From positions 1,101,242 through 1,132,498 of the forward strand of contig NW_006922148.1 in the NCBI RefSeq assembly GCF_000298275.1: DNA of 31,257 bases. Direction: 5' to 3'. Each line of letters starts with the position of its first letter. The stretch's first letter is position 1. This DNA is from Orycteropus afer. Taxonomy: Eukaryota. The position numbers and the translations under genes were made by a program. Below are positions 1-29,560 of the stretch, in pieces. The notes under the pieces were generated by a model. The model was not told the DNA's origin, searched no databases, and saw only the letters and a program-made list of their open reading frames with translations.

Positions 1-210
1 GAGGAGAGACCCATCATTGCATCTAGATGGCAGCTTGCTAGCTTTTAAGATGCCAGTCGCTACTCACCAAAGTAGGAGGTGGAACAATGTTTTGTATAGT
101 ATGTTATGCTAATTGAGCTTGCTCTCCCCTGTGGCTATGGTCCCAAGCCCGTAGGATCAACTACTCAGTTGCTCTGGGTAGCTGGCTGTGACCAAGCAGT
201 GACCACAACC
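1..210 (-). mobile_element. Copy c1 of a ~0.8 kb T-tailed composite retroposon family, cut by the window edge; only the 5' part (in element sense) is visible
   Basis: The sequence 'gaggagagacccatcattgcatctagatgg...ggaacaatgttttgtatagtatgttatgc...gtgaccacaacc' is co-linear with the right-hand ends of the copies at 10640-10829, 14960-15189 and 25760-25858. Confidence 0.6.
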
Positions 211-1960: not shown

Positions 1961-4784
1961 CCAATATTTGTCCTTATGTGATTGACTTGTTTCACTCAGC
2001 ATCATGTTCTCCAAGTTCATCCATGTTATTTGGTGGTTAATAGATTCCGCATTATTCTTTAGTGTTGCATAGTATTCCATTTTGTGTATGTACCATAGTT
2101 TGGTTATCCATTCTTTTATTGATGGGCACTTAGGCTGTTTACTTCTCTTTGCTATTGTGAATAGTGCTGTGATGACCATGGGTGTGCATATATCTATTTT
2201 TGTCCTGGTTTTTACTTCTTTAGAGCATATACCTAGTACTGGGATTGCTGGATCAAATGGTATATCTAATTCCAACTTTTTAAGGAATTGCCACACTGAT
2301 TTCCACAATGGTTGTATCATTTCACAGTCCCAGCAGCAGTGTATGAGAGTTCCAGTCTCTCCACATCCTTGCCAATGTGTTATTTTCTGCCTTAAATTTT
2401 GCTATTAGCGCTGTGGTAATATGGTATCTCTTTGTTTAGATTTGCCTCTCTCTAATGGCTATCGATCATGAACATTGCTTCATGTGTTTATTGGCTACCT
2501 GAATATCTTCTTTGGTAAAGTGTCTGTTCATGTCTTCCATCCATTTTTTAATTGATTGTTTATATTTTTGATTGAAGTGTTGGAGTTTTCTATAAATTCT
2601 AGAGATAAGGCCCTTGTAAGATATGTCATTTCCAAATATTTTTTCTGAATCTGTAGGTTTTTTTTTTTTTTTTTACTCTTTTGGAGAAGTCTTTTGGTGC
2701 AAGCAGAAACTCAATTTTTCGAAGGTCCCAGTCATCTAGTTTATCTTCTGCTGTTTAGGCATTTTGGGTTATGCTTGATAGTCTATTTATGTCATAAATC
2801 ACGGCCCTTAAGTTTGGCCTTATTTTTTCTTTGATGAACTTTATAGTTCTAGGTTTCACATTTAAGTCTTTGATCCATCTGGAGTTAATTTTTGTGTATG
2901 GTGTGAGGTATGATTCTTGTTTCATTTTTCTGCAAATGGATATCCAGTTTTGCCAGCAACATTTACTAAAGAGACTATCTCTTGTCCATTTAATGGATTT
3001 TGGCCCTTTATCAATGATCAGCTGACCATAGGTGGATGAATCTATTGGTGAGTTCTAATTCTGTTCCATTGGTTTGTGTGTCTATAGTTGTATCAATACC
3101 AGGCTGTTTTGACTACTGTGGCTGTATAGTAGGTTATGAGATCTGGGAGTATGAGATCTCCTACTTTGTTCTTCTTCTTCAGCAGTACTCTGCTTATGCA
3201 AGGTCTCTTTCCTTGGTTTTCTCACGTCCTTAAAGAATGTTGCTGGAATCTGGATAAGGATTGCATTGAATGTATGGGTTCCTTTGGGTAGAATTGACAT
3301 TTTCACAAGGTTCAATTTCCCTATCCATGAGCATAGTTTGTTCTTCAGTTTATATACATCTGTTACAGTTTCTTGAAGTAGTGTTTTATAGTTTTCCTTG
3401 TTAGGTCTTTTGTGTCATTGGTAAGATTTACTCCCAAATGTTTTATCCTTTTGGTAGCTATTGCAAATGGTTTTGATTTCCTTATTTCCTTTTCAGAGAC
3501 TTCTTTGCTGGTGTAGAGCAAGATCTTGTATAATGTCACTATACTAAATCTTTCAATTAGTTCCAGTAGTTTGCTTGCTGAGTCTCTTGGGTTTTCTATG
3601 TATAGAGGATCAAATCATCTGCAAATAAAGTTTTACTTCTTTCTTACCAATCTAGGTGCCTTTAATTTCTGTTTCTTGCCTTATTGCCCTGGCTAGGACT
3701 TCAAGTACAGTGTTGAATAGAAGTGGTAATAGAAGGTATCCTTGTCTGGTTCGTGGTTGTAAGGGAAATAGTTTCAGTTTCTCTCCATTGAGAATAATGT
3801 TAGCTGTTGGTTTTGTATATATGCTCTTTATTATGATGAGGAATTTCCCTTCTATTCTTATTTTTTTGCAAGTTTTTATCAGCAGTGGGTGTAAGATTTT
3901 ATCAAATGCCTTTTCTGTATCTATTGATATGATCGTGTATATCTTTTCCTTTATTTTACTATGTGGTGGATTACAGTGATTGTTTTTCTGATGTTAAACC
4001 ATCCTTGCATACCTGGTATGAATTCCACTTGACTCTGATTTATTATTTTTTGATATGTTGTGGAAGTCTGTTGGCTAGGATTTTATTGAAGATTTTTGTA
4101 TCTATATTCATAAGGGATATTGGTCTATTGTTTTCCTTTTCAGTGGTGTCTTTACCTGCTTTTGGTATCAGGATTATGCTTGCATCGTAAAATGAATTTG
4201 GGAGGATTTCATCCTTTTCTATGCTCTGGAATAGTTTTAGAAGGATCAGTGTCAGCTTTTCCCTGAATGTTTGGAAGAATTCTCTGGTGAAACCGTCTGG
4301 GCCAGGCCTTTTTTTGTTGGTAATATTTTTATTACCTGTTTAATTCCTTCATATGTTATGGGTCTCTTAAAAATTTTCTACCTCAGTCTGTGTTAGTTTA
4401 GGTAAGTTGTATGTTTCTAGAAATCTCTGTATCCTCTTGATGGTATCTCACATGAATCTTAGGCTTTCTTCATTTTGTTTCAATCTTTTTTCTGATTGAT
4501 ACCTTAACAAAGTAGTATTGAGGTATTTGTCTTCAATCTCACTAATTCTGTCTTCCATTGATTTGATTCTGCTCCTTTACCTATTCCATGGGTTATGTAT
4601 TTCTGAAATCTTAGTATTAATCTGTGGGATTTCTATTTGTTGATTTTGTATCATTTCTAATTTTTCAATTATTTTGTCAGTTTGTTCTTGTATTGTTTCC
4701 TTAATTGCTCTAGAGCTTTTTTCTGTTTTCCTTAATTTTGTCAGTGTTTTCCTTGATCTGTCTCCCAATTTATTGAAGGTACCT

Positions 4785-7890: not shown

Positions 7891-8080
7891 GGGAGCTCTG
7901 GTGGCATAGTGCCTAAAGCTTTTGACTGCTAACCAGAAAAAAGTCTGGTTAAAACCCACCAGCAACTCCTCGGAAGGAAGGTTGGGCAATCTACTTCCAT
8001 AGTGATACTGCCTCAGAAACCCAAGGAGGGGTCACTATGAGTTGGATCCAATCGACAGCAGTGAGTTTGTTTTTTTGGGG
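7891..8080 (+). mobile_element. AfroSINE (T-rich-tail type) flanked by a 10 bp target-site duplication
   Basis: 'gggagctctggtggcatagtgcctaaagcttttgactgctaaccag...gggtcactatgagttggatccaatcgacagcagtgagtttgtttttttgggg'. The TSD 'gggttactga' lies at 7881-7890 and again immediately after the T-run at about 8080-8090. Confidence 0.9.
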
Positions 8081-8800: not shown

Positions 8801-9057
8801 GGGTCATATTATGCAATTCACTGCATTGCATGTGTCTTTGTTGAGTTTCTTTCTGGTTATTCAGTTCTTCATTGAAAATGGTATGTTAAACTCTCCTACT
8901 ATAATTGTGGAGTTGTCTATTTCTCTTTTCAATTCTATTAAAGTTTGATTTATGGATTTTAGTGCTCTTTTTTTGGGGGTTTAGATATTTACTGTGGGTA
9001 TGTATTCTTGTTCGATTGACCTTTTAATCATTATATGCTGGCCTTCCTTTTCTCTTA

Positions 9058-9240
9058 GCTCTGGTGGCGTACTGCTTAAGGCATTTGACTGCTAACCAGA
9101 AGGCTGGCGGTTCAAACCCACCAGCCACTCCGTGGAAGGAAGATGGGCAATCTGCTTCCATAAAGATTTACTGCCTGGGAAACTGGAAGGGGGTCGCTAT
9201 GAGTTGGAATTGACTCAATGGCACTGAGGTTTTTTTTTTT
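9058..9240 (+). mobile_element. AfroSINE (T-rich-tail type) inserted in the L1-b ORF2 endonuclease region, with a target-site duplication
   Basis: 'ctctggtggcgtactgcttaaggcatttgactgctaaccagaaggctggcggttcaaaccc...gggtcgctatgagttggaattgactcaatggcactgaggttttttttttt'. The TSD is 'ccttttctctta' (about 9045-9057 and 9243-9255). Confidence 0.9.
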
Positions 9241-10054
9241 CCCCTTTTCTCTTACAGTAGTTTTTGTCTTAAAATCTATTTTATCACTGACTCTTTTTTG
9301 ATTGCCATTTGCTTGATGTATTTTTTCCAACCTTTGATTTTTAGTCTGTTTTTTGTCTTTGTGTCTAAGGTGTGTCTCTTGTTGACAGTATATTGATGAG
9401 TTACATTTTTTAGGCCATTTTGCAATACTCTTGTCTCTTGATTGACACATTTAATCCATTTACATTAAGTGTAATTATTGACAAATATGAATTTATTGCT
9501 GTTATTTTGTTATGTGCTTTTTTGTGGTTCTGCTCATTTCTTTGTTCCGTATAGTTTTCTCTGCTGAACTCATTTTGTTTTTGAATTTTCTTATCATATC
9601 CTTCATTGTTATTGTTTTAGTATTTACTAAATACTTATAACACTCTTTTATTTTGATGACAAAGTTTATTAATTAATTTTATTTAAGTTACCCTGTCATT
9701 TATTATTTCCTTTCCAAGTTGTAAACAGTCCACTCTCTCTTAAATCGTTTTGAGTTCCTCTCCAGTTGGAAGTTCTGTGCCTAACTGTTTATTTCTGTTT
9801 TTGCTTTGTATTTGTCCTCATTTACAAATTGATGTCTTTTGTTCTCTGTTTTCAGTCTTGTAGGTTTATTTTACTTTGGATACTTTTATAGGTGAGTTGA
9901 GTTCTAGTTGGTGTTATTTTGTGTGTTAATCACAGAAATCACAGATAACTGTTTGCTATTGTTGGTTCTCTATCTTAAGGACTCCCTTAAATTTAAATTA
10001 ATTCTCTGTGTATCTAGAAATGTCTTAATTTTCCCATTATATTTTAGGGACAGT

Positions 10055-10829
10055 TTTTTTAAAAAATTGTGATTTGGGTGAAAGTTTACAGAGCAAGTTC
10101 ACATACACTTTGTCTCACTCATGTCATTGATTGTGATTTCCCACAGTGCAACAGCTCTCTTCCCACTTCCTCCCCATAGTTAACCTCTTCCTTGGGTCCT
10201 TCCCTCTCATGCATTCCAGCTCCCCGAACTGTCTCCCCGTGCATACACAACTCTTCTATTCTTGCGTGATTGATCTCTCCAAGGAGTGTATCTATCTAAT
10301 GTAAATGTTCAGCTCATATGCCTGTCTTTTGTTTGGCTGGAAGCCACAGGCATGGGTTCAGTTCCTGACCTGAAGGACAACTGGGGCCATAGTCTCAGTG
10401 GTTCCATCAGGCTCTATCAGACCAGCAAACCTGGTGTCCACCCCCCCTTTTTTTTTAACGATGTTGAGTTTTGTTTTACACTGTTCTCCCACTCTATCCA
10501 GGATCTCCTACATAGATCCCCCTCTGAGTGGTAGCTGGGCACCATCTAGTTCTTCTGGTCTCATAGTCATCTAGGCTGAGGATCACATGGTGTACCAGTC
10601 GCTTGGATTAATTGTTTCCATGAATCTTTGGTTTTCGTCATTCTTCTTTGCTCTGGACGAGGAGAGACCCGTCATTGTATCTAGATGGTTGCTTGCAAGC
10701 TTTTAAGATCCCAGTCACTACTCGCCAAAGTAGGATGTGGAACAATAGTTTTGTATAGTATGTTATGCCAATTAAGCTTGATGTCCCCTCTGACTGTGGT
10801 CCTGAGCCCACAGGTCCAAGTCCTCACTC
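10055..10829 (-). mobile_element. Copy c2 of the ~0.8 kb T-tailed composite retroposon, inserted into the L1-b inter-ORF spacer with a ~14-15 bp TSD
   Basis: The left end is 'tttttttaaaaaattgtgatttgggtgaaagtttacagagcaag' and the right end is '...ctgtggtcctgagcccacaggtccaagtcctcactc'. The TSD is 'tttagggacagtttt' before and 'tttagggacaatttt' after. An internal T-run at 10436-10450 divides the element into two units. Confidence 0.65.
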
Positions 10830-11561
10830 TTTAGGGACAATTTTACTGGGTATATAATTCTTGGTTGGTAATTTTTTTTCTTTCAGGATTTTAGATATGT
10901 CATCCCACTGCCTTCTTGGCCTGAATGGTTTCTGCTAAGAAATCACAGCATAATAATAGTGGTTGGCCTTTGTAGGTAATTTTTTGTTTTTACCATGCTG
11001 CTTTCTGTATTGTTTCTTTGTCTCTGGTTTTGGAAAGTTTGATTGTGATATCTTTTAGTGATTTAGTTTTTTGGGGTTGATCCTGTTTGGGGTTTGTTGA
11101 ATTAAATGCGTATCTTTTCTTCTTTCATCATATTGGGTAAATTCTCTTCCAACAAATCTTGGGACAATTTTCTCTGTGGTTTTATTTGCCTCTTCCTGTT
11201 CTGGATTTCTGGTCATATGTAATTATTCCTCTTGATGATGTTCTACATAAATCTAAGGTTTTCTTTTTTTCTTCTTTTCTCTGATTGTTTCCTTAACAAA
11301 GTAGTATGGAGAGATTTGTTTTCTGTCTTCCATTGATTCAGTTTAACACCTATGCTCTTTCACTGTGTTATCTATTTCTGAAATCTTAGTATTAATCTTC
11401 TGGATTTGTATTTGCTGTTTTTTTATGTTTTCTAATTTTTCTTTTATCTTTCAGTTTTTTGTTGTATTGTTTTCCTGAAGTGTTCTGTTGTTTTGTCTGT
11501 GTCTTCCTTAATTTTTTCAATGTTTTCCTTTATCTGTCTCTAAATCCATTGAAGGAACCTG

Positions 11562-13080: not shown

Positions 13081-13995
13081 GGTGGCTTGGCACCTGGGCA
13101 GTGTTCCTGCTGGCCAAGTCGGTGGCTCAGAGCAGGAGACCTGGTTCTGGAAGGAGTTACTGGCAGCTCAAAATGTAGCTGGATGTAGGGTGCCTACTCT
13201 TAGAAAGAATTCCTGCTGGTCCAAAAGACAACTGGATTCAGGGTGCTTGGTCCTAGAAGTTCCCTGCTGGCCCAGAAAGTATCTGAGGGAAAGGTTCCTT
13301 AACCCAGAAGAAGTTCCTGCCAGACCAAAAGGTGGCTGGTAGCTGGATGCCTGGCCCCAGAAGAAGTTCCTGCCCTCCCAAAAGGCAGCTGGGTTTAGGT
13401 TGCCTGGTCTCAGAAGAAATTTTTTCCATCCTAAAAGGTGGCTGATTATATATCTCCTGGTCACAGAAAAAGTTCCTACTGACCCGATGGTGGTTGGGTA
13501 TAGAATGCTTTGTCCCAGAAGAAGTTCCTGCCAACCTAAAAGGCAAGCTGAGAATAGGGCACTTAGTCCCAGAACTAATTGCTCCCTACCAGCATGGCAG
13601 CTGGAGCTGGGCACCTGCTTCCAGGTGGAGTTCCCAGAAGATGTCTGGGGCAGCTTACCTGGATTTGGAAAAAGTTTCTGCCAGGCTAAAGGGCACCTGG
13701 GGCAAGGTACCTGGTTCCAGAAGGAGTTCATATGGGCCCAAAAAGCACCTGGGGACAAAATAGTCCCAGAAAAGTTCCTGCCATCCCCAAAGCCCATTGG
13801 GGCTAGGTCACCTGATCCCATAAAATGTTCTGCCATCCCAAAAGATAGCTAGATGGTAGGATACTTGGTCCCAGAAGTTCCTGCCAGCCCATTAGGCATC
13901 TGTGAGCCAGGCGCCTGGTCCCAGAACTAGTTCGTGCTTACCCAGCAGGCAGGTGAGGGCAGGGTGCCTGATCACAAATGGAGTTCCTGCTGGCC
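13080..13995 (-). repeat. Tandem array of about 17 degenerate ~52-53 bp monomers that makes up the 5'-terminal part of the L1-b 5'UTR. It is a monomeric L1 promoter-type array
   Basis: A unit of the form 'cctggtcccagaagaagttcctgccNNcccaaaaggcagctgggNtNaggNtg' repeats head to tail. Examples: 13192-13243 'ctactcttagaaagaattcctgctggtccaaaagacaactggattcagggtg', and 13345-13397 'cctggccccagaagaagttcctgccctcccaaaaggcagctgggtttaggttg'. Confidence 0.8.
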
Positions 13996-14359
13996 CAGTT
14001 TTTGGATTTCTTTTGCTTCAAGATTTTTGAGGTTATTGGATGTGTAAGTTTCTATCTTTTGTTGTGTTTGGGAAAAGTTCTTGGTGGTCCTTTCTCTGTT
14101 TCTTCTTCTTCTGGGAGCCCCAATAATACATACATTATTCAGTTTGATGATGTCCCACATATCTCTTAGGCTTTGTTCATTTTTCTTTACTCATTTTCCT
14201 TTTTACTGCTTGGTCTGAACAGTCTCAGTTGCTTTGTCTTCGAGTTCATGGATTCTTCTGCCAGCTCAAATCTACTGTTGAGCCCTTCCGGCAAATTGTT
14301 CATATATGTTATTGAACTTTTCAGTTCTAGTATTTCTATTTGTTTGTTTGTTTTCTTTC
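13996..14359 (-). mobile_element. L1-c: ORF1 segment (first ~55 residues of the RNA-recognition domain plus the coiled coil) truncated on its 3' side where the L1-b 5' terminus abuts it
   Basis: The minus ORF 13972-14160 translates to 'MWDIIKLNNVCIIGAPRRRRNRERTTKNFSQ...', an LWD-IKR-N-IIG-PE start like the L1 ORF1 RNA-recognition domain. Region 14170-14359 is paralogous to the ORF1 coiled coil. Confidence 0.7.
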
Positions 14360-15189
14360 TTTTTTTATTTTTTAAATTGTGATTTGGGTGAAAATTTACA
14401 GAGCAAATTCACTTGCCATCCAGCAGTTCACATATACTTTTGTCTCATGACATTGACTACGATTTACCACAATGCAACAGCTCCTCTCTCACTTCCTCTG
14501 CATAATTACCTCTTCCCTACATCCATCCCTCCATGCCCTCCTGCCCCCAGAGCTGTCTCCCTGTGCATAAATAGCCCTTCTTTCTCCCATGATTGTTCTC
14601 TCCAAGGAGTGTATCTGCCTCAGGTAAATGTTCAATTCATATGCCTGTCTTTTGCTTGGCTGGAAGCCACAGGTGTGGGTTCAATTCCAGACCTGAAGGG
14701 CAACTAGGGGCCATAGTCTCAGTAGTTCCATCAGGCTATATCAGACCAGTAAACCTGGTCCCCACCCCCCTTTTCCTTTTTTTTTTTCCCAAACGATTTT
14801 CAGTTTTGTTCCACATTGTTCTCCTCTCTATCCAGGATCTCCTACATAGATCCCCTTCCGAGTGGTTGACAGTGGTAGCTGGGCACCATCTAGTTCTTCT
14901 GGTCTTATAGTCGTATAGGCTGCAGATTGCATGTTGTATGAGTCACTAGGACTAATTGTTTCCATGAATCTTTGGTTTTCTTCATTCTTCTTTGCTCTGG
15001 ACGAGGAGAGACCCATCATTGCATCCAGATGGCTGCTTGCAAGCTTTTAAGATCCCAGTTGCCACTCTCCAAAGTAGGAGGTGGAACGTTTTGTGTAGTG
15101 TGTTATGCTGATTGAGCTTGATGTCCCCTGTGACTGTGGTCCCGAACCCACAGGTTCAACTACTTGGTCTCTCTGGGTAGGTGGCTGTG
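14360..15189 (-). mobile_element. Copy c3 of the ~0.8 kb T-tailed composite retroposon, the longest copy, inserted in L1-c ORF1
   Basis: 'ttttttatttttaaattgtgatttgggtgaaaatttacagagcaaattcac...ggttcaactacttggtctctctgggtaggtggctgtg'. The flanks 'tatttgtttgtttt' and 'tatttgtttatttt' look like a TSD. Confidence 0.65.
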
Positions 15190-15650
15190 TATTTGTTTAT
15201 TTTAAAATTTCTTTTTATTGAAATTCCTGTTTTGTTCTTATATCATTTTTCTCATTTCCTTTAGTTCTTTTCCCACATTTTCATTCAGTGTTTTGAGCAT
15301 GCTTCATATTGTTGCTTCAAAACCTATGTTGAGTGGTTCTGTTATCTGTTCTTCCTCAGGGAGAGTTTCAGTGCCCTGATTTTTTATTTTTGCATGGATT
15401 ATCCTTTCCTGCCTCTTTATATGTTTTGTGTTTGTCTTTTGGAATTGGAACTTTAAGCTCTTTCACTGTGATAATTCTGAAAATTAAATTTTTCCTCTTT
15501 TTTAGAGTTTGTTCTTCTTCCTCTTCATTGTTGCAAGCAGGGTGCCTGGTCCCAGAACTAGTTGGTGCCTACCCAGAAGGCAGGTAGGGCCAGGGTGCCT
15601 GATCCTAGATGGAGTTCCCATAGGCCCAGTTTTTGGATTACTTTTTAAAC
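15190..15650 (-). mobile_element. L1-c 5' portion: ORF1 N-terminus and proximal 5'UTR, ending in two promoter monomers and the family 5' terminus
   Basis: Region 15541-15640 'cagggtgcctggtcccagaactagttggtgcctacccagaaggcaggtagggccagggtgcctgatcctagatggagttcccataggcccagtttttggatta' is paralogous to the last two monomers and terminus of L1-b (13900-13995). Confidence 0.7.
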
Positions 15651-15840
15651 TTTATTATCTGGTAGCGTAGTGCCTAAGGCACTTGACTGGTAACCAGAAG
15701 GCTGGGGGTTCAAACCCACCAACCACTCCTTGGAAGGAAGATTGGCCAATCTACTTCCATAGTGATACTGCTTCGTAAACCCAAGGAGGGGTCGCTATGA
15801 GTTGGGGCTGACTCGACGGCACATAACAACAACAACATTA
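15651..15840 (+). mobile_element. AfroSINE ((AAC)n-tail type) inserted exactly at the L1-c 5' terminus, with a 10 bp TSD
   Basis: The TSD 'ctttttaaac' lies at 15641-15650 and again at 15841-15850. The body reads 'tctggtagcgtagtgcctaaggcacttgactggtaaccagaaggctgggggttcaaaccc...gggtcgctatgagttggggctgactcgacggcacataacaacaacaaca'. Confidence 0.9.
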
Positions 15841-15899: not shown

Positions 15900-17286
15900 T
15901 ACACTTGCCATTGTTTCTTCCCTATTTGTCTCATTTCACTCAGGCACCAGCTGTCACTGTTTCGTCTCTAGGTTTGCTGAGTAGGGTTACTGGCTGGTTA
16001 CTTCAGCACTGAACTCCTTGGTTTGTAGAATTTGGGGTGGTCACTTTCCCACCAGATATTAGGCATGCTGACTATATCACTTTGGTACAAGACTACTTCC
16101 TTAATGTTAGTGCCCATAATGCCCCTTTAGCACCTGCTTCCTCTTTATGGATTACCAGCTGTCTCTGATAGCTCATCACAGATCTTCCTTGACCTTACAG
16201 CTCTGGCACTAGGCCCTTCTGCCCAGGAGCTCTCACGCAAACATACCACAGACTCTTCTTCCAGGTTGGTACTGCAGCTCCCTCAGAGTCCTACCCTGGA
16301 AATGGAAACTATTGCCAATTTACCACATGTTCTCACTGTTCATGAGCTCTAGACTGTGCTGTTCTCACCTTATTTCTTTTTCCTAGGACTCACAGGGACT
16401 CCAGTTTATTCTATGCTCATTGAACTGCTTTGCCCAGGTCTATCTGTCCAGGTGTTTTGTCCTGCATTATGTCCCTTATTCCTCTCCATCATGGGCCTTA
16501 CCACAGAGGGCTCCCTGTAGTTTCACTTGTAAGGTTGATCTGGTTTTAACAAATTCCCTTAATTTCTGCTTATCTGCAAATGTCCTAATTTCACCATCAT
16601 ATTTGAGGGACAGTTTTGCTGGGTATATAATTCTTGGTTGGAAATTTTTCTGTTTCAGGGTTTTATATATACCATCCCATTGCCTTCTCACCTGCATGGT
16701 ATCTGCTGATTAATCAGAGCTTTGTCTTATTGGTTGCCCTTTGTAGGTATCTTTTTGTTTTTCCTGTGCCACTTTCAGCATTCTGTCTTTGTCTTTTGTT
16801 TTGGTGAGTTTGATGGTGATGTGTCTTGGTGATTTTCTTTTGGTGTGTATCCTGTTTGGGGTTCGTTGCACTTCCTGAATGGATATGTTCTCATCTTTCA
16901 TCATATCAGGAAAATTGTCTTCCAACAAATCTTTGACAATTTTCTCAGTGGTGTTATTTTTCTCTTCCTGTTCTGGAATTCCAACTACATGTAGGTTGTT
17001 CCTTTTGATGGTGTCCCACATGAATCTTAGGCTTTCTTCATTTTGTTTTTATCTTTTTTTTTCTGATTTATCCCTTTCCAAAGAGATAGTCAGGTATTTG
17101 CCTTCAATCTCATTAATTCCATCTTCCATTAATTTGATTCTACTCCTTTGCCCTTTCAATGTGTTACTACCTATTTCTGAAAATTTAGTATTAATCATCT
17201 GGATCTCTATCTGTAGATTTTGTATCATTTCTAGTTTTTCATTTATTTTATCATTTTGTTATTGTATTTTCTTTTCCACATTGCAG
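15900..17286 (-). mobile_element. L1-g: inter-ORF spacer plus a nearly intact ORF1 (C-terminal domain, RNA-recognition domain, coiled coil) of a young L1. It is truncated on the left and interrupted on the right by a retroposon fragment
   Basis: The minus ORF 16710-17021 translates to 'MWDTIKRNNLHVVGIPEQEEKNNTTEKIVKDLLEDNFPDMMKDENISIQEVQRTPNRIHTKRKSPRHITIKLTKTKDKDRMLKVAQEKQKDTYKGQPIRQSSD', the ORF1 RNA-recognition domain. The minus ORF 16476-16697 translates to 'RRQWDGIYKTLKQKNFQPRIIYPAKLSLKYDGEIRTFADKQKLREFVKTRSTLQ', the ORF1 C-terminal domain. Confidence 0.85.
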
Positions 17287-17625
17287 TTCATATGCATTTT
17301 GTCGCATGACATTGACTGTGATTTCCCACAATGTAACAGTTACCTTCCCACTTCCTCCCCATCGTTACCTCTTCCCTCTCATGCACTCCTGCCCCTGACT
17401 GTGCATACACTGCTCTTCTGTTCTCTCATGATTGATTGCTCCAAGGACTGTATCTACCAGATGTAAATGTTCAGCCCATATGCTGGTCTTTTATTTGTCT
17501 GGAAGCCACAGGAGTAGAACAGTATTTTTGTATAGTATGTTATACCACTTGAGCTTGGATGTTCCTTGCAACCATGATTTTGAGCCTGCAAGCCCAGTCA
17601 CTTATTATCTGGATGGTTGGCTGTG
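17287..17625 (-). mobile_element. Copy c5 of the 0.8 kb retroposon family, a fragment with a central deletion
   Basis: 'ttcatatgcattttgtcgcatgacattgactgtgatttcccacaatgtaacag...ggaagccacaggagtag' then jumps to 'aacagtatttttgtatagtatgttataccacttgagcttgg...'. The two parts match the left and right ends of copy c2. Confidence 0.55.
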
Positions 17626-17682: not shown

Positions 17683-17868
17683 TTATTGTTGTTTTTATGT
17701 GACATGGAGTCAGACCCAACTCATAGCGACCCCTCCTTGGGTTTCCGGGGCAGTATCACTATGGAAGTAGATTGCCCAACCTTCCTTCCGAGGAGTGGCT
17801 GGTGAGTTTGAACCATCTGCCTCTGGTTAGCAGTCAAGTGCCTTAGACACTATGCTACTAGAGCTCCC
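17683..17868 (-). mobile_element. AfroSINE in minus orientation with a TSD
   Basis: The tail in reverse complement is 'ttattgttgtttttatgtgacatggagtcagacccaactcatagcgacccctcc', and the body ends '...agcagtcaagtgccttagacactatgctactagagctccc'. The TSD is 'ggacattctta' (17672-17682 and 17872-17882). Confidence 0.9.
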
Positions 17869-18149
17869 TAGGACATTCTTATGGGAGGTACAAATATGTA
17901 TGTAGAACTATCATGTGCCAAACATAGATATTCCCTTTTACCTACTCATAGCTGATCATTTTGCCTGTCTACCTATGTAATCACCCATAGATTAATGTTT
18001 GTTTTTACTAATAATGCAGTACTGTGTATGTAAAACTATTTACCTTTGTTGTCTGTAGCTCTTGTGCACGTCTCTGTGTCTTCCTTTTCCTTAGTGTTAC
18101 TGTGCTGGTCACTCACTTGATAAATTGCCTTTCCCTTCATCCAGATTAG

Positions 18150-18433: not shown

Positions 18434-18880
18434 CTTTTTTTTGAATAATATTTTGTTGTGCTTTCAGTGAATGTTTACGCAGTATCTTAGGTTATCCTTG
18501 ACTTGTTACTTTCCATCAAGTCTGCTCTGACTCATGGTGACTCCATGTATGATAGAACAAGATGTTGCCTGGTCATGTACTGTCTTTATGATTGTTGGTA
18601 TGTTTGTATTGTTTTGGCTGCTGTATCAGTGCATCTCACTGAGAGTCTTCCTTGCCTTTGCTGACCCACCACTTTACCCACCATAATGTCTTTTTCTAGT
18701 GATTGATTTTTTTTCTGATGATGTGTCCAAAGAAAGTGAGTCAGAGTCTCACCATCCTTCTAAGGAACATTCTGGTTGTATTTCTTCTAAGATTTATTTG
18801 TTAGATTTTCTAGCAGTCCCTGGTATATTCAGTATTCTTCACTAACACCACAATATGAATGCACAACTCTGACAGTATAT
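18434..18880 (-). mobile_element. RTE/BovB-type LINE 3'-end fragment (diverged)
   Basis: Begins with a T-run, then 'ccatcaagtctgctctgactcatggtgactccatgtatgatagaacaagatgttgcctggtc...', paralogous to the 23210, 30425 and 30746 copies. The head is shared with the AfroSINE 3' region. Confidence 0.6.
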
Positions 18881-19437: not shown

Positions 19438-19638
19438 GAGATAAGGTGCTTGGGTGGCTTAGTAAGTAAGGCATTTGGCTACTAACAAGAAGGTCAATGG
19501 TTCAAACCTAACAGCTGCTCTGTGGGCAGAAGATGAGGGAATCTACTTCCTTAAAGATTTACAGCCTTAGAAACACAATGCGGGTTGCTGTGAGTTGGAA
19601 TGGACTCAATGGCAGTGGGTTTTGTTTTTTTTAAGGAG
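19438..19638 (+). mobile_element. AfroSINE (T-rich-tail type, diverged 5' head), 137 bp downstream of the exon donor
   Basis: 'gataaggtgcttgggtggcttagtaagtaaggcatttggctactaacaagaaggtcaatggttcaaacc...gggttgctgtgagttggaatggactcaatggcagtgggttttgttttttttaagg'. Confidence 0.85.
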
Positions 19639-20013
19639 TATGGAGAGTATAAGGGGAAATAAGCTTTTGAGAAAACTAGACATTCCTATCTGTAAAATTC
19701 TCAGACACAAGAGCTGATCAGAGGTAGCATTTTACTGCTGGTTAAGTATAAGCGTAGATCTTCTATATCAAGAGGATAATAATATGCCTGAGGAATATGG
19801 ATGGTCTTGATCATCAGTTAATGCCAAACTTTAACCTTTTTAATGGCTAACTACTTTTTTTTTTTCTGTAGAGCAATTTATTATTTGAGTGCTAATAAAA
19901 ATAATATAGCAAACTGTGCCATTGTAATAACTTTATAAATGTGGAACTTTTCTAATTAGAGTTATTACTTAAATGAAAGGGTAGTAGCATGTAATCATGT
20001 TTCTATAAAACAT

Positions 20014-20290
20014 TTTTTAAAAAATTTTTTATTGTGATTTGGGTGAAAGTTTACAGAGCAAATTCATTTTCCATACAGCAATTTACATACACTTTGTCTC
20101 ATAACATTGATTGTAGTTTCCCACAGTGCAAAAACTTTCTTTTCACTTCCTCCCCATAGTTACCTGTTCCCTGTGTCCTTCCTTCCCATTCACTTCCCCT
20201 GAGCTGTCTCCCTGTGCATATATAGCCCTTCTATTCTCCCATAATTGATCTCTCCAAGGGGTCTATCTACCTAATGTAAATGTTCAGCAT
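20014..20290 (-). mobile_element. Copy c6 of the 0.8 kb retroposon family: the 3' unit only, 5'-truncated in element sense
   Basis: 'tttttaaaaaattttttattgtgatttgggtgaaagtttacagagcaaattcattttccatacagc...ccaaggggtctatctacctaatgtaaatgttcagcat' ends abruptly where the full copies continue. Confidence 0.6.
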
Positions 20291-20690
20291 AGCTAACTAC
20301 TTTTAGAGTTTTATAACTTCTGATTATCTTAGGGAAAGGCTGGTATGCTTCCAACCCCTAGAAAATGCTCTTACCTTTTTAATTATGTTTAATAGCAATT
20401 GTAAGAATAAATGAAAAAACTATTCTCAATGGTGTGTCTTGTGCAACTGCATTGTCATATTAAAATGATACGGTTTTCCTCTGTGGAATTAAAACAATTT
20501 ACTTCATGGAGAAAAAGGTTTATTGGGTTAAAGCCCATAAAGTACATGTGTAATAAGAAACATGTTTTGGAGGTTTTTGTTCCTAGTTTGATTCTGACAT
20601 CTTTCTAACTTTCTTATGTTAAAAGCAAATCTCTTACAATTACATTATCATTCCTCTCTCTATATGTATCTATCTATTTATATCTATCTA

Positions 20691-20892
20691 TAGCTCTGGT
20701 GGGAGCTCTGGTAGCATAGTGGCTAAGGCACTTGACTGCTAACCAGACGGCTGGCTGTTCAAACCCACTAGCCACTCCTCGGAAGGAAGGTTGGGCAATC
20801 CTACTTCCGTAGTGATACTGCCTCGGAAACCCAAGGAGGGGTCGCTATGAGTCAGGTCTGACTCGACGGCACATAACAACAACACAACAACA
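20691..20892 (+). mobile_element. AfroSINE ((AAC)n-tail type), the first of a head-to-tail tandem pair
   Basis: 'agctctggtgggagctctggtagcatagtggctaaggcacttgactgctaaccagacggctggctgttcaaaccc...gggtcgctatgagtcaggtctgactcgacggcacataacaacaacacaacaacat'. Confidence 0.9.
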
Positions 20893-21095
20893 TAGCTCTG
20901 GTAGCATAGTCCCTAAGGCATTTGACTGCTAACTAGAAGGTTGGTGGCTCAAACCCACCAGCCACTCTACAGAAGGAAGACTGGGCAAACTACTTCTGTA
21001 AAGATTGACAGCCTCAGAAACCCAAAGGGGGTTTTTGCTATGAGTTGGAATCAATTTGATGGCAGTGAGTTTTTTTTTCTTTTCTTTTTTTTAAT
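20893..21095 (+). mobile_element. AfroSINE (T-rich-tail type), the second of the tandem pair
   Basis: 'agctctggtagcatagtccctaaggcatttgactgctaactagaaggttggtggctcaaaccc...gtttttgctatgagttggaatcaatttgatggcagtgagtttttttttcttttc'. Confidence 0.9.
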
Positions 21096-21215: not shown

Positions 21216-21370
21216 AAAGATCATAGCAGCCCCTTCTTGAGTTTCCGAGATGGTAGCTCTACGGAAGTAGATTGCCTAGTCTTCCTTGTGAGAAGTGGGT
21301 GGTGTGTTTGAACCACCAGCCTTCTGGTTAGCAGTCAAATGCCTTAGGCATTATGCCACCTGAGCTCTGA
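21216..21370 (-). mobile_element. AfroSINE in minus orientation, tail-truncated
   Basis: 'catagcagccccttcttgagtttccgagatggtagctctacggaagtagattgcctagtcttcc...ggtgtgtttgaaccaccagccttctggttagcagtcaaatgccttaggcattatgccacctgagctc'. Confidence 0.9.
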
Positions 21371-22099: not shown

Positions 22100-23200
22100 C
22101 CATCAGGGTCTCCCATAGTGGACAGGTATGGTGGAATGAATTACTTGGTATGGCTCTTCTAGCCATGGTCTTTGTGACTCCCAACAAAACACTGGGTGGA
22201 ACTATATAAATATGAGGTGCTTGTGGACTTCCAGTGGGATTATATAGCTTGTTAGTAAGGTAAATAAAGGGACATAGCACTCTTGTGGGTGTGGAACCAC
22301 AGAAATAATGTATATGGAACCCTAATGTGGGGATTGGTCAGTTTTGTCATTCTGATAGGTGTAAAATGAGCTTTCCCAGAGGCAGAAGGGGGTGGTTTCT
22401 CAGTGCCATTAAGAGACAAGAGCCAGAGGTGGAGTGGAGCATGTCCTTGGACCCAAGATCCCTGTTCTGGACCTCCATGGCAGAGATACTGGCAGAGAGA
22501 TCAGCAGAGAAATTGGCAACAGAGGCAGCAGAAATGAGAGACCAGCACGAGACAGAATGACAGGCTTGCTGGCCCGCAGAGTGAGAATGCTGAGTACCTT
22601 TGGGCAGGAGGCTTGTTCGTGGAGTGTACTAGGTGCCCCTATCACAAAGCTAAAAGAGCTTGCCTGAGCAAGGCAAAGCCAGGGTAATAGGCCAAGGGCC
22701 AAAGAGAGGTGTGCCTTCAGGCATGGCAGAGGGAATGTTGTCCTGATGTGTGCTGAGCATTCCTGAATCTGAATTGTAACCTGTTGCTTCCCTAATAAGC
22801 CCTGTAATTGTGAGTATTGTCTGTGAGTACTATGGCCATTGCAGTGAAGCATCAAACCCAGCAGAGAAGTAGAGTGCTGTGGAAAAGATGGTTGGGGTTA
22901 GAATTGGTAAAAGGTTGGAGGGTGGCAGCATATCTAACCTCATAGGAAGCAGCCTTGGGCTGCTGATGGTGATTCTCAAAGTTGGAGGAGATAAGAGGAT
23001 GCTGCCCCCACATCCTCTATGCAGCAGGTTACAGCAGAGGTTCCAGACTGAGACAGACTAGGAAAGAGGACCTGGTGATCTACTTCTGAAAAAATTGGCT
23101 AGTGAAAACATTATGAATAGCATTGGAACATTGTCTGATACAATGCTGGAAGATAAGGCCCTCAGGAGGGATGTCACTTAATATATACGTGGGTAAGAAT
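22100..23200. mobile_element. Possible LTR/MaLR-like element or degraded unique sequence; low confidence
   Basis: It lacks coding features, and 148 aa and 77 aa ORFs on opposite strands overlap each other. It has LTR-style sequence ('cctgttgcttccctaataagccctgtaattgtgagtattgtctgtgag'). Confidence 0.2.
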
Positions 23201-24458
23201 TGCCTCCTCAAAGTACTTGTTATTGTTTGGTGCTGTTAAGTCACCTCCAACTCATAGCAACCCTGTGTACAACAGAATGAAACATTGCCCAGTCCTACAC
23301 ATCCTCACGATCCTTGCTGTGTTTGAGCCCATTGTTGCAGCCACTGAGTCAATCCATCTAGTTGAGGGTCTTCCTCATCTTCACTGCCCCTCTCTACTTT
23401 ACCAAGCATGATATCCTTCTCCAGGAACAGTTCCCTTCTGACGACATGACCATAGTAGGTGAGACATTGTTTGGCCATTCTCACTTCTGAGGAGCATCTG
23501 GCTGCACTTGTGCTGGGACAGATTTATTGGTTCTTTTGAAGTCCATGGTATTTTCAGTATTCTTTGCCAGTACCACAATTCAAAGGCATCAACTCTTCTT
23601 CAGTCTTCCTTATTCATTGCCCAGCTTTCACATAATAACGTGAGCTTGGGTTAGTCACACTTCAGTCTTCAAAGTAACATCTTTGTTCCTCAGTACTTAA
23701 AGGAGTTTTTTTTTGAAGCACATTTGCCCAGTGCAGTATGATGTCTGATTTCCTGACTGCTACTTCCATGAGTGTTGATTGTGGATACAAGTAAAATAAA
23801 ATCCCTAACAACTTTAATCTGTTCTCCATTTATCGCGATGTTGCTTATTGGTTCAGTTGTGAGGATTTTTATTTTCTGTATGTTGAGGTTTAATCCATAC
23901 TGAAGTAGTCTTTGATATGCATCAGTAAGTACTTCAAGTCCTCTTCACTTTCAGCAAATGGGTTTTATCATCGGTGTATTGCAGGTCGTTAATGATTCTT
24001 CCTCGAATCCTGATGCTACGTTTTTCTCTTTTAATTGGTCTTCTTAGATTATTTGCTTAATATGCAGATTGAGTAAGTATGGTGAAATGATACAACCCTG
24101 ATGCACACCCTTTCTGATTTTAAACATGCAGTATCTTCTTATTCTATTTGAACAAGGTCTTTGTACAGATTCCACATGAGCACAACTAAGTATGCTCATT
24201 CTTCTCAATGTTATCCATAATTTGTTTTGATCCACACAGTTAAATGCCTTTGCATAGCCAATAAAAAGTAAGTAAACATCTTTCTGGTATTCTTTGCTTT
24301 CATCCAAGATCCATCTGACGTCAGCAATGATATCCCTAGTTCCACGTCCTCTTCTGAATCTAGCTTGAATTTTTAGAAATTCCCGTCAGTATACTGCTGC
24401 AACAATTTTTAAATTATTTTCAGCAAAATTTTATTTGCATGTGGCATTAATGATATAG

Positions 24459-24635
24459 GAGTTCTGGTGGTGTAATTCCTAAGGCATTTGACTGCTAAAG
24501 AGAAGGCTGGTGGTTCAAACCCACCAGCCACTCCTCGGAAGGAAGGTTGGGCACTCTACTTCCATAGTGATACTGCCTCGGAAACCCAAGGAGGGGTTGC
24601 TATGAGTCAGATATGACTTGACAGCAGTGTTAGTA
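24459..24635 (+). mobile_element. AfroSINE inserted in the minus-strand RTE, with a 13 bp TSD
   Basis: The TSD is 'attaatgatatag' (24446-24458 and 24636-24648). The body reads 'gagttctggtggtgtaattcctaaggcatttgactgctaaagagaaggctggtggttcaaaccc...ggggttgctatgagtcagatatgacttgacagcagtg'. Confidence 0.9.
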
Positions 24636-25149
24636 TTAATGATATAGTTTGATAATTTTCATAGTCTGTTGAGTTACAGTTCTTCCAAATGGACACAAAT
24701 ATTGATCTCTTCCAGTCGGTTGGCTAGGTAGCTGTCTTCAAAATTTCTTGGCATAAATGGATAAGTACCTGCAGTGCTGTATCTGTTTGTTGAAACATCT
24801 CAATTGTTATTCTGTCAATTCCTGGGGCCTTGCTTTATCATCGATTCCTTCAGTGCTGTTGGACTTCTTCCTTTAGTACCATCAGCTTTCAGTCCTGTGC
24901 TTCCTCCTGAAGTGGTTGAACAGTGACAAATTCATTTTGGTACATTGACTCTGTATTCCTTCCATCTGCTTTTGATGTTTTCTGCATCGTTCAGTATTTT
25001 GCCCATAGAAGCCTTCAATATTTTACTGCAACTCGAGGCTTGAATTTTTCCTTTAGTTCTTTCAGCTTGAGAAATGCCAAGTGTGTTCTTCCCTTTTGGT
25101 TTTCTAACTGCAGATCTTTGTATATTTCATTATGATACTTTACTGTGTC

Positions 25150-25858
25150 TTTTTTTTTTTCTTTCAATTTTTGTGATTTGGATGAAAGTTTACAGAGTAA
25201 ATTCATTTCCCATACAGCAGCTCATGTACACTTTGTCTCATGACATTGACTAATTTCCCACAATGCAACAGCTCCCCTCTCACTTCCTCCCCATAGTTAC
25301 CTCTTCCCTGTGTCCTTCCTTCCCATGCACTCCTGCCCCTCAAGCTGTGTCCTTGTTCCTACACAGCCCTTCTATTCTTCCATGATTGATCTCTCCAAGG
25401 AGTGTATCTACCTAATGTCAATGTTCACCTCATATGCCTGTCTTTTGTTTGGCTGGAAGCCACAGGAAGGGGTTCAATTCCAGACCTGAAGGGCAGCTGG
25501 GGGACATAATCTCAGGGTTTCCACCAACTCTATCAGACCAGAAAACCAGGTCCTTTTTATTTTAAATGATGTTGAGTTTTGGTTCTACATTGTTCTCCCA
25601 CTCTATCCAGGATCTCCTACATAGATCCCCCTCTGAGTATTTGACGATGGTAGGAGGGCACCATCTAGTTCTTCTGGTCTCACAGTCATATAGGCTGAGG
25701 ATTGCATGACATATCAGAAGCTTGGACTAATTGTTTCCTTGCATCTTTGGTTTTCTTCATTCTTCTTTGCTATGGGCAAGGAGAGATCTATCATTGCATC
25801 TAGATGGCTGCTTGCAAGCTTTTAAGATCCCAGTTGCTGTTCTCCAAAGTAGGATGTG
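25150..25858 (-). mobile_element. Copy c4 of the 0.8 kb T-tailed composite retroposon, inserted in the minus-strand RTE with a 9 bp TSD
   Basis: The TSD is 'tactgtgtc' (25141-25149 and 25859-25867). The left end is a T-run followed by 'ttgtgatttggatgaaagtttacagagtaaattc'. The right end is 5'-truncated at '...ccaaagtaggatgtg'. Confidence 0.7.
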
Positions 25859-26769
25859 TACTGTGTCTTCTTGAGCCACCCTTTGAAATCTGTTCATCTC
25901 TTTTATGTCATCATTTCTTCCATTAGCTTTAGCTATGCTCCATTCAAGGGCAAGTTTCAGAGTCTCTTCTAACATCCATTTTGGTCTTTTATTCTTTTCC
26001 TGTCTTTTTAACGACATTTTGCTTTCTTTATGGATGATATTCTTGATGTCATCCCACAACTTGTCTGCTCTTTGATCATTGGTGTTCAATGCATCAAATC
26101 TGTTCTTCAGATTGTCTCTAAATTCAGATGGGATATAATCAGGGTTGCATTTTGGCTCTCATGGACTTATTTTAATTTTCTTCAGCTTCAACTTGAAGTT
26201 GCATATGGGCAATTAATTGTGTGTTCCCCAGTAAATTCCTGGTCTTGTTTTGACTGATGTTATTGAGCTTCTGCATTGGCCCTTTCCACAGATGTCGTCA
26301 ATCTGATTTGTCGTCAATCTGATTCCTGTGTATTCTGTCTGGCAAGGTCCACATATATAGTTGCCTTTTATGTTGTTGCAAAAAGGTATTTACAATGAAT
26401 AAGTCTTTTCTCTTGCGAAATTCTGTCTTGCAATTTCTAGTGTCATTTCTATCACCAAAGCCATATTTTCCAACTACTGGTGATTCTTCTTTTTTTCCAA
26501 CTTTCACTCTCCAGTCACCAGTAATTATCAATACATCATGATTGCATGTTTGGTCAATTTCAGACTGCAGAATTTGGTTAAAATCTTCAGTTTCTTCATC
26601 TTTTGCTTTAGTGGTTGGTATATACATTTAGTAATAGTTGTATTAACTGGTCTTCTTTGTAGGCATGTAGATATTATCCTATTACTGAGAGACAACATCA
26701 AAATAGAATTGTCCTTGATGTGGTTGGAGTAAAACTTTTTAGTCCCTCCATTTGCTGATATGGCATCAC

Positions 26770-29560
26770 TCAAAGTGAGAAGAAACAGCAGCAAACATCC
26801 TTTAATAATTGGAACATGGAAAGGAAGAAATATTAATATGTATTAAATTGGAAGTCATCAAAAATGAAAAAGAACACATAAAGATTGATACCCTAGGCAT
26901 CAGTAAGCTGAAATGAACTTGTATTGGCCATTTTGAATTGGACAAACATATGCTTTAGTATGCCAGGAATGACAAATTGAAGAGGAAAAGCATTACATAC
27001 ATCATCAAAAATAACATTTCATTTCAGGATCTATCCTGAAGTGTAGTGCTGTCAGTGATAGGATAATATCCATATGCCTGCAAGGAAGGCCAGTTAGTAT
27101 GACTATTATTCAAATTTAAGTGCTAACCACTAAGGCCAAAGATGAAGAAAGAGAAAATTTTTACCAACTTTGGCAGTGTGAAATTGATCAAACATGCAAT
27201 GAAGATGCATTGATGATTACTGGTGGTTGGAAAGTGAAAGCTTGCAACAAGGAAGAAGGATCATTAGCTGAAAAATATGGTATTGGTGATAGAAATAACC
27301 CCGGAGATCACATAATAGAATTTTGCAAGATTGATGACCCATTCATTGGAAATAATTTTTTTCAATAACATAAATGACAGCTATGCAAGTGGACCTTCCC
27401 AGCTGGAATACAACAGAATCAAATTGACTGCATCTGTGGAAGGAGACTGTGGAGAATCCTAATATCATCATTCACACAAAGGCCAAGGGTTGACTGCAGA
27501 AGAGACTGTCAGTTCCTTTTATGTAAGTTCAAGTTGAAGCTCAAGGAAAGTAAAACACATCCCCAAAATCCAAAGTATGACCTTGAGTACATCCCACCAA
27601 TATTTAGAAACCATCTCATGATAGAATTGACATATTGAACACTAGTGACTAAAGACCAGATGAATTGTGGGATGGCATTAAGGACATCAGTCTTGAAAGC
27701 AAAAGATTATGTTGTCAGAAGGGACCAGTCCTTGGAGAAGGATATCATGGTCAGTAAAGTAGAAGATCAGTGAAAAAGTGGAAGAGCCTGAATGAGATAG
27801 ATGGACACAGAAGTTGCAACAATGAATTCAAACATAGAAAATATGGTCCAGAATCAGGTAGTATTTCTGCTGTACATGGGATCACTATTAGAATTAATTC
27901 GATGGCACCTAACAATAGCAGGAACGTGGGCAAAATATTGAATGATGCAGAAAACATTGAAAGAAGATAGAAGTTAGGTCATTGTACCAAAAAATCACTG
28001 GAGTTAATTCCATTTCAAGAGGTAACATATTAAGAAGAAAGAAGCAACATATTGAAAGAATAAGTACAAGCTGTTGTGGAGGCATTGGTGAAAAATAAGA
28101 CTCCAGGAGTTGATGGAATACCCATTGAGATGTTTCAGCAAATGGATGCAATACTGGAAGTACTCATTAATCTATGCCAAGAAGTTTGGAAGACAGTTAC
28201 TTGGCCAGCTGATGGGAAGAGATCCGTGTTTGTCCCCATTCCAAAGAAAGGTGATCCAAAAGAATGTGGAAATTATCGAACAAGAACATAAATATCACAT
28301 GCAAGTGAAATTTTGTTGCAGATGATTCAAGAATGGTTGCAGCAATACATTGACAGTGAATTGCCAGAAATTCAAGTCAGATTCAAAGAGAATGTGGAAC
28401 TAGAAATATCATTGCTGATGTCAGATGGGTCTTGGCTGAAAGCAGAGAATACCAGAAAGGTGTTTACCTTTATTTTAGTGATTATGCAAAGACATTTGAC
28501 TGTATGGATCATACAAAATTAAGGATAACATTTCAAAGAATGTGAATTCCAGAACATTGCATTGTTTTCGTGTGGATCCTGTACACAGACTGAGAGGGCA
28601 GTTGTTCAAACAGAAAAAAGTCTATGGTTTGAAATAACGAAAAGTATGTGTCAGGGTTGAATCCTTATACCATATTTATTCTATCTGTATGGTGAACCAA
28701 TAATCCAATAAGCTGGACCATTTGAAGAAGAACTTAGCATCATAACTGAAGTAAGACTCATTAACAATCTGCAAATGCAGGTGACACAACCTTGGTTACA
28801 GAAAGTGAAGAAGATTTGAAGTACTTAACTGATGAAGAAAGATCAGGGTGTAGTACAGCCTTTGGTATGGATTACACCTCAACATAAAGAAAACAAAAAT
28901 TCTCACAACTAGACCAATAAGTGACATCATGATAAACAGAGAAAACATTGAAATTGTCAAGGATTTCATTTTACTTTCAATTCACAATCAGTGCCCATGA
29001 AAGCAACAGCGAAGAAATCAAATGATGTATTGCACTGGACACATCTGCAAAAGACTTCTTTAAAGTGTGAAGAAGCAAACATGTCACTTTGAGGACTAAG
29101 GTGCACCTGACCCAAGCCAAGCTATTTTCAATCTCATATGCTTGAGGAAGGTGGTCAGGAATAAGGGAGACCAAAGAAGAATTAAGGCATTTAAATTATG
29201 GTGTTGATGATGAGTATTGAATATATCATGGACCACCAGAAACGCTAACAAATCTGTCTCCAAAGAAGAACAGGCAGTATTTTCTTTAGAGGCAAGGATG
29301 GTGAGACTTCATCTCCCATACTTTGGACATGTTATTATGAGGGACCAGTTTCCTGGGGGAGGACATCATGCTCGGTAAGGTGGAGGGTCAACGAAAAAGA
29401 GGAAGACCTTCAAGGAGATGGATTGACACAGTGGTTCCAACAATAGGTTCAAGCACAGCAATAATTATGAGTATGGTGCAGGAGAAGGCATTGTTTGTTT
29501 CTGTTGTATATAGGGTTGGTATGAGCTGGAATCCACTCTACAGCATCTAACAACAGCAAA
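26770..29560 (+). mobile_element. RTE/BovB-type LINE on the plus strand, nearly full length from the endonuclease N-terminus to the 3' (AAC)-type tail. It has multiple frameshifts and is a pseudo-element. It is oriented head to head with the minus RTE
   Basis: Plus 27120-27368 translates to 'TKAKDEERENFYQLWQCEIDQTCNEDALMITGGWKVKACNKEEGS...GDRNN', the endonuclease. Plus 28076-28291 translates to 'KNKTPGVDGIPIEMFQQMDAILEVLINLCQEVWKTVTWPADGKRSVFVPIPKKGDPKECGNYRT', the reverse-transcriptase N-terminus. Plus 29368-29550 translates to 'MLGKVEGQRKRGRPSRRWIDTV...', the BovB C-terminal IMLGK-EG-RRRGR motif. The 3' end reads 'ctacagcatctaacaacagcaaaacaacatg'. Confidence 0.85.

Follow-up and report, generated by a model that had tools for sequence, protein, structure and literature searches.

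The locus raises the question of what kind of element the repeat at positions 10055-10829 is, and by which route it has reached several places within the window, that is, the whole stretch of 31,257 nucleotides that was analysed. The window is mammalian and afrotherian in type and is rich in SINEs of ~170 bp that have a tRNA-like head and the AfroSINE 3′ motif GGTCGCTATGAGT..GACTCGACGGCA. The copies very probably represent six independent, now-dead insertions of one lineage-specific, non-coding and non-autonomous retroposon family, whose unit consists of about 805 nt followed by an A-rich tail. The element probably belongs to a known class, the LINE-1-dependent non-SINE non-coding retroposons (SVA/LAVA), and is an ordinary interspersed repeat.

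When 10055-10829 is compared with the 31-kb window by blastn, one repeat is recovered in six copies, at E-values between 1e-49 and 0. These are exactly the six which the first-pass annotation had listed and, as stated there, they share one orientation, all of them lying on the minus strand. Pairwise identity among the copies is 76-86%. Their bodies, numbered along the window, are the following.

c1 body, 1-190, minus strand: consensus 1-191; complete 5′ end at 190 (CACAGCCAGC...), the 3′ part lying beyond the window start
c2 body, 10068-10829, minus strand: consensus ~25-805; ~25 nt lost at the 5′ end
c3 body, 14376-15189, minus strand: consensus 1-805; full-length copy
c4 body, 17269-17625, minus strand: consensus 1-~105 joined to ~504-773; complete 5′ end at 17625
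c5 body, 20031-20307, minus strand: consensus ~525-805; plain 5′ truncation
c6 body, 25171-25858, minus strand: consensus 111-804; 5′-truncated

The extents first proposed for c2, c3 and c6 are retained here, while the other three had to be redrawn: c1 occupies 1-190 and not 1-210, c4 17269-17625 and not 17287-17625, and c5 about 20031-20307 plus its tail and not 20014-20290. The copies together account for ~3.1 kb, or 10% of the window. A candidate seventh copy at 18456-18488 was rejected, as it is the end of an RTE element. The 29-mer tgtgatttgggtgaaagtttacagagcaa occurs four times in the window with no more than two mismatches, against an expectation of zero; it is missing from c1 because that copy is cut by the window start, and from c4 because the last ~30 nt of that copy are lacking. 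A multiple alignment of the copies gave a majority consensus of 805 nt in which every position is backed by just 3-5 copies. Divergence from this consensus, a small-sample one, is 7-12% (K2P), and that between copies is 14-24%. The copies thus fall into roughly the same age class as the surrounding AfroSINEs.

The multiple alignment also defines where the element begins. Three copies (c1, c3 and c4) start at the identical base (CACAGCCA...) next to three unrelated upstream sequences, and no copy extends upstream of this start. The common start with unrelated flanks therefore identifies a discrete unit of ~805 nt, not an open-ended truncation series. Truncation of the 5′ end at varying points, as had been described for all copies, applies to c2 (~25 nt lost), c6 (110 nt) and c5 (~525 nt), whereas c1, c3 and c4 share the one full-length 5′ end. 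The shortness of c4 has a different origin, namely an internal deletion of ~400 nt that runs from consensus ~105 to ~504, has a CCAC(C)TCCT microhomology at each breakpoint and leaves the first ~105 and the last ~270 nt in place. The final ~30 nt and the tail are also absent from this copy, at the point where a 5′-truncated L1 ORF1 fragment (16559-17268) abuts in the same orientation; a later L1 insertion into the 3′ end of c4, or a deletion, would explain the 17269/17268 junction. In the sense orientation the termini of the element are CA...CA, without TG...CA bounds for the whole, and the sequences CACAGCCA... and ...AAATCACAAT at its two ends are not inverted repeats of each other. A DNA transposon or MITE was rejected on the lack of terminal inverted repeats and on target-site duplications (TSDs) of 11, 13 and 15 bp, which are not of fixed length.

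The other end of the unit is marked by an A-rich tail, which follows ...CCCAAATCACAAT in each of the four copies whose 3′ end is intact (c2, c3, c5 and c6). The T-run, or reverse-complemented poly-A, initially noted in front of this motif corresponds to these tails; the runs are nevertheless mixtures of T and A and not pure T. The tails are accordingly not pure poly(A), and a T6 run is found inside those of c2 and c5, which end in AATTTTTT-AAAAAAA and AATAAAAAATTTTTT-AAAAAA, respectively. Tails, duplications and the control site are located as follows.

c2 A-rich tail, 10058-10067, minus strand: sense ATTTTTTAAA, running on into the A-rich start of the TSD
c2 TSD, tail side, 10043-10057: tttagggacagtttt
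c2 TSD, 5′ side, 10830-10844: tttagggacaatttt
c2 empty-site control, 16603-16617: tttgagggacagtttt..., paralogous L1 site with the target once
c3 A-rich tail, 14350-14375, minus strand: sense TTTAAAAAATAAAAAAAGAAAGAAAAC, which includes AATAAA
c3 TSD, tail side, 14337-14349: sense AAACAAACAAATA
c3 TSD, 5′ side, 15190-15203: sense AAAATAAACAAATA; plus-strand target TTTT/AAAA
c5 tail and candidate tail-side TSD, 19999-20030, minus strand: tail sense AAAAAATTTTTTAAAAAATG; TSD TTATAGAAAC at 19999-20008
c5 candidate TSD, 5′ side, 20308-20316: TTATAAAAC
c6 A-rich tail, 25152-25170, minus strand: sense AAATTGAAAGAAAAAAAAA
c6 TSD, tail side, 25141-25151: sense AAGACACAGTA
c6 TSD, 5′ side, 25859-25869: sense AAGACACAGTA

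Three clear duplications had been proposed, and all of them hold up, with sizes of 11-15 bp. That of c2 (tttagggacaRtttt) matches at 14/15 positions, the 15-mer TTTAGGGACA(G/A)TTTT being present on both sides. That of c6 is longer than stated, since tactgtgtc extends to tactgtgtctt with 11/11 matches. The duplication of c3 (tatttgtttRttt, or AAA[T/C]AAACAAATA) matches at 12/13 positions, or at 12-13 of 14; it is of low complexity and directly abuts the first base of the element. The TSD of c5 is a weak candidate, with 9/10 matches and an indel.

In two cases the site before insertion can be verified. The host of c2 is an L1 ORF1-region fragment (9998-10057 plus 10830-11468), for which an uninterrupted paralogous L1 (16559-17268) serves as empty-site control; it reads ...CCATCATATTTGAGGGACAGTTTTGCTGGGTATATAATTC... 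and contains the 15-bp target once. The insertion c6 splits the ORF carried by an RTE-type LINE at 24634-26707 on the minus strand. Once c6 has been deleted in silico along with one TSD, the RTE frame ...RFQRVAQEDTV|KYHNEIYKDLQLENQKGRT... reads through, giving ...KEMNRFQRVAQEDTVKYHNEIYKDLQLENQKGRTHLAFLKLKELKEKFKPRVAV... without a stop. Nested insertions of this kind, c2 into an L1 and c6 into an RTE LINE, provide relative ages. The plus-strand cleavage sites are TTTT/AAAA for c3, TTTT/GC for c2 and TCTT/CT for c6, which agrees with T-rich/A sites of the L1 endonuclease type (5′-TTTT/AA-3′), four sites being too few for statistics; TTTT/AAAA is the L1 endonuclease consensus.

No ORF is present in the element, all frames of which contain stops. 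Pfam gave no match for the three sense frames of the consensus, and a six-frame pseudo-protein of the consensus found no homolog among 5.8 billion protein clusters. LINE-mediated retroposition, as opposed to an LTR mechanism, had been claimed from the start and is borne out by the A-rich minus-strand tails, the 11-15 bp TSDs, the two verified empty sites, the lack of TG...CA ends and the lack of coding capacity. The description of the element as SINE-like is not supported. ARAGORN detected no tRNA in it, Rfam (whole window at E<=1; c2 and c3 at E<=10) no tRNA, 7SL or 5S head, and pol III A and B boxes were not found above shuffle expectation; moreover, 805 nt plus tail exceeds the length of SINEs (about 80-600 bp). 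Pol II is likelier than pol III as the polymerase that would have produced the source RNA, in view of a length of 0.8 kb, an AATAAA-type end and the missing A and B boxes.

A further claim concerned an internal T-run by which the element would be split into two units. The run, made of T and C, is real and was mapped in two copies; in c6 the A/G run is partly deleted.

c2 internal run, 10441-10456, minus strand: sense A9G7, then TG; polypurine-tract-like junction of the 5′ and 3′ halves
c3 internal run, 14763-14787, minus strand: sense AAAAAAAAAAAGGAAAAGGGGGG (A11GGA4G6), then TG

The argument for a dimeric or composite SINE built on the two short copies fails, as c5 begins ~100 nt inside the 3′ half and c4 is the product of the internal microhomology deletion, so that neither boundary lies at the A-run. 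The 5′ and 3′ halves show no homology to each other; therefore, the element is not a dimer. The junction reads AAAAGGGGGG|TGGGGACC..., and the 3′ half is initiated by TG and ends in ...CACA, being thereby TG...CA-bounded. Within the window the junction 12-mer AAAAGGGGGGTG is restricted to the element copies.

These features can be joined in a mechanism of several steps. A master locus would be transcribed from a fixed start (CACAGCCA...), and the 3′ end of its RNA would consist of AATAAA, a short T-run and poly(A). LINE-1 ORF2p, acting in trans, would insert a copy of such an RNA into the genome by target-primed reverse transcription. The outcome would be A-rich tails, TSDs of 11-15 bp, cleavage at T-rich sites and frequent 5′ truncation. 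From the A-rich tails and the T-rich cleavage sites, LINE-1 rather than RTE appears the best candidate for the mobiliser, and L1 sequences are present in the window. The AfroSINEs of the window, which are RTE partners, differ in ending in (AAC)n or without an A-tail, but they too have TSDs of 13-16 bp, and TSD length alone therefore cannot single out L1. Neither the RTE copies nor the AfroSINE tails of the window resemble the element, and the RTE 3′ end is not shared.

In the reading closest to this one, the copies are 5′-truncated 3′ ends left by an autonomous L1 subfamily whose 3′ UTR is long (>0.8 kb). A-tails, TSDs and 5′ truncation are typical of L1 fragments, and the terminal ...TTTCACCCAAATCACAAT-A(n), with its motif ...CACAAT-A(n), is similar to the ends of old L1 copies of the window, such as ...TTTTCACCACAATTAAAAA at 258-290. 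A G-rich polypurine stretch is likewise typical of L1 3′ UTRs, one L1 copy gives an 88-nt end-anchored alignment with z=3.5, and c5, with only the 3′ 280 nt, is indistinguishable from an L1 end. What makes this reading unlikely is the common 5′ terminus, at which 3/3 copies reaching the 5′ region stop at the same nucleotide, amid unrelated flanks and, in c3, abutting the TSD. Furthermore, no ORF2-like translation continues in any frame, nhmmer against the L1 3′ UTRs in the window is not significant, and the second L1 3′ UTR gives z=1.1. A local segmental or tandem duplication is a practically negligible explanation of the copies. It could account for six copies in the same orientation inside 31 kb, but truncation point, tail and TSD are particular to each copy, and the flanks are unrelated, with the exception that c2 and c4 touch two paralogous L1 fragments, at different positions and on opposite sides.

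An independently retroposed unit is also assumed by a model in which the source RNA is a pol III transcript of the 'T+' SINE type, with a degenerate or unrecognised internal promoter, a stop at the T-run, AAUAAA polyadenylation and mobilisation by L1. The T6 run of c2 and c5 fits the pol III terminator of such a tail, the order being AATAAA - T6 - A(n) in c5 and T6 - A(n) in c2, and the sense strand of the 805-nt element contains no internal TTTT. A TTTT-free sequence of this size is however expected by chance in ~15% of cases, according to our own estimate. Of the shuffled sequences, 12% contain a B-box match as good as the B-box-like GGCTCGGGACC at +42, and for the A box the match does not exceed chance. 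Considering also that tRNA, 7SL and 5S similarity is absent at E<=10 in Rfam and that 805 nt far exceeds known pol III SINE transcripts, this model is quite improbable. Insertion by integrase, with the copies as solo LTRs or as 3′ fragments of an endogenous retrovirus, would explain why the 3′ half begins with TG right after AAAAGGGGGG and ends in CA. This explanation is barely tenable: the TSDs measure 11-15 bp and not 4-6 bp, and flank the whole 5′-truncated unit including its A-rich tail; the full element is bounded by CA...CA and not TG...CA; the non-homologous halves leave no paired LTR; no copy begins at the putative LTR boundary; and gag/pol/env remnants are absent nearby.

The preferred reading, a family of L1-copied insertions, can be placed beside several known systems, and the nearest is SVA/SINE-R, the L1-dependent composite of hominoids. 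SINE-R is derived from HERV-K env plus 3′ LTR. As in SVA, the element is non-coding and far longer than a SINE, ends in an A-tail with an AATAAA-type 3′ end, and combines L1-type TSDs and a defined 5′ end with frequent 5′ truncation. At the level of motifs, AAAAGGGGGG|TG resembles the passage from a retroviral polypurine tract into the beginning of an LTR, which suggests that the 3′ module may likewise derive from a retroviral 3′ end, in a SINE-R/SVA-like manner. An alternative lead for the junction would be a fossil A-tail fused to an L1-3′UTR-like piece, as the last 88 nt show a weak resemblance to one old L1 3′ end. The window contains neither an ERV nor a young L1 of the fitting family. 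The (CCCTCT)n, Alu-like region and VNTR of SVA are lacking in the element, TRF detecting no tandem array in any copy; the two have no sequence relation, and the hosts differ, hominoid against afrotherian. The fuller version of this idea, in which the element would be an afrotherian counterpart of SINE-R/SVA, is rather unlikely. It would imply a chimeric transcript made of a 5′ module with its own promoter and of an ERV polypurine tract plus U3-R, amplified to high copy number as a parasite of L1, independently of the SVA/LAVA lineage of hominoids and not described as such. Should the ERV polypurine-tract/LTR origin be true, it would represent a second, independent ERV-derived composite retroposon amplified by L1, outside primates, and would help in asking which properties let an RNA succeed as an L1 parasite.

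Processed pseudogenes and U6-L1-type chimeras have in common with the element the L1 trans-mobilisation of polyadenylated RNA. Two modules joined at an A-rich point, as seen in the element, would result if reverse transcriptase switched templates or if two retroposed units became fused. Six copies in 31 kb imply, in contrast to one-off retrocopies, a family that amplified to high copy number, and protein clusters and Rfam yielded neither a source gene nor an snRNA part. T+ SINEs, for example rodent B2, have the same tail order AATAAA - T-run - A(n) as c5 and c2, whereas the element has neither a tRNA-derived head nor A/B boxes and is four to five times longer. AfroSINE/AFRO_LA, tRNA-derived and RTE-mobilised, occurs in the same genome type and window as the element and has a similar TSD length (13-16 bp), but AfroSINEs are ~170-250 bp long, possess a tRNA-like head and share the RTE 3′ end.

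The AfroSINE-type copies of the window end in (AAC)n or have no A-tail; the tails of AfroSINEs have been reported as (CAA)n or (GGTTT)n (PMC6007223). AFRO_LA was rejected as a name for the element, as it is an AfroSINE subfamily (PMC11292518). Searches of the literature by name, by topic and with a 17-mer of the element retrieved no description of it. Exact scans of two conserved 23-27-mers against metagenome contigs, and of one 23-mer against prokaryotic and viral contigs, which are collections without afrotherian DNA, returned no match. In the copy-masked window, blastn at word size 7 and nhmmer --max, run with the left half, the right half and the full element, found no significant relatives. 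A relation to MIR was rejected, no similarity being seen to a MIR consensus. Given the density of six copies, ~10% of 31 kb, the element is very probably already contained in curated or Zoonomia-type libraries. Its description amounts to routine repeat annotation, and any analysis of genes or regulation would mask it.

Two possible contributions of L1 to the element were considered, the first being kept as a weak lead and the second rejected. An L1 3′ UTR origin of the right half is a weak lead, the two L1 ends giving z=3.5 and 1.1 and the third 3′ UTR belonging to a different subfamily. An L1 ORF1 origin of consensus 194-260 (AATGAAGAAAACCAAAGATTCATGG) rests on z ~3 for three L1 copies, but the stretch is A-rich and the match does not extend. 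Within this part of the consensus a 22/25-nt match, AATGAAGAAAGCCTAAGATTCATG, was observed to the L1 ORF1 segment encoding ...NEESLRFMWDTIK..., with L1 copies at 17019-17042, 4450-4474 and ~11240-11280. It may be due to chance or represent a small captured piece of L1.

The minus strand carries all six element copies and most of the L1 fragments as well; for 6/6 the two-sided p is ~0.03. This strand bias may reflect selection against sense-oriented poly(A)-bearing inserts within a plus-strand transcription unit. No exon was identified in the window.

At least a dozen AfroSINE-type copies are present in both orientations and with clean TSDs of 13-16 bp (ATTACTTTTTAAACTT; ATTAATGATATAG). An Rfam tRNA match at 1895-1962 corresponds to an AfroSINE head. 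Copies were located at these positions.

AfroSINE-type copies: 15658-15839, 24458-24629, 510-680, 7891-8045, 9057-9224, 17686-17871
AfroSINE-type copies, continued: 19445-19632, 20700-21092, 21221-21367, 29957-30147

They are without the ~20-nt CAGTTCTACTCTGTCCTATA stretch of the canonical AfroSINE, and may form a lineage-specific subfamily.

Among the L1 sequences, ORF1 is recognised at 16710-17021 (Pfam PF02994, E=1.6e-25), and the C-terminus of ORF2 at 1946-2320 matches residues 1149-1266 of human L1 ORF2p in the PDB (E=1.7e-38). On the minus strand of 258-2369, two old L1 3′ ends lie in tandem orientation, with ORF2 C-termini at 931-1329 and 1964-2369 and 3′ UTRs at 258-491 and 1405-1819, each split by AfroSINE insertions (498-898; 1820-1963). 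The copy c1 lies only ~70 bp downstream of the poly(A) of the first L1 of this pair. The block at 13150-13987 is GC-rich (51%) and is built of degenerate tandem repeats with a period of ~53 bp; TRF scores 141 at 13303-13418, and self-similarity is 66-75% over ~800 bp. The long ORFs on its two strands (222 aa, 150 aa) are spurious and without a Pfam match, and the block may represent L1 5′-UTR-type monomers or a minisatellite.

Two further LINEs, which from their motifs we take to be of the RTE/BovB type, are arranged head-to-head at 23200-26707 (minus strand) and 27030-29560 (plus strand), with arms of ~2.5 kb that are 71-73% identical and ~320 bp apart. The minus-strand copy holds the nested c6 and the AfroSINE at 24458-24629, and an RVT_1 domain is found at 23200-24460, in the downstream part of this LINE. 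The inverted pair may go back to an old inverted duplication or to two separate insertion events. Two tandem partial copies of the RTE 3′ region (30428-30743 and 30754-31067, 74% identical) lie within 30428-31250, and the same region is also present at 23204-23712 and 29048-29559.
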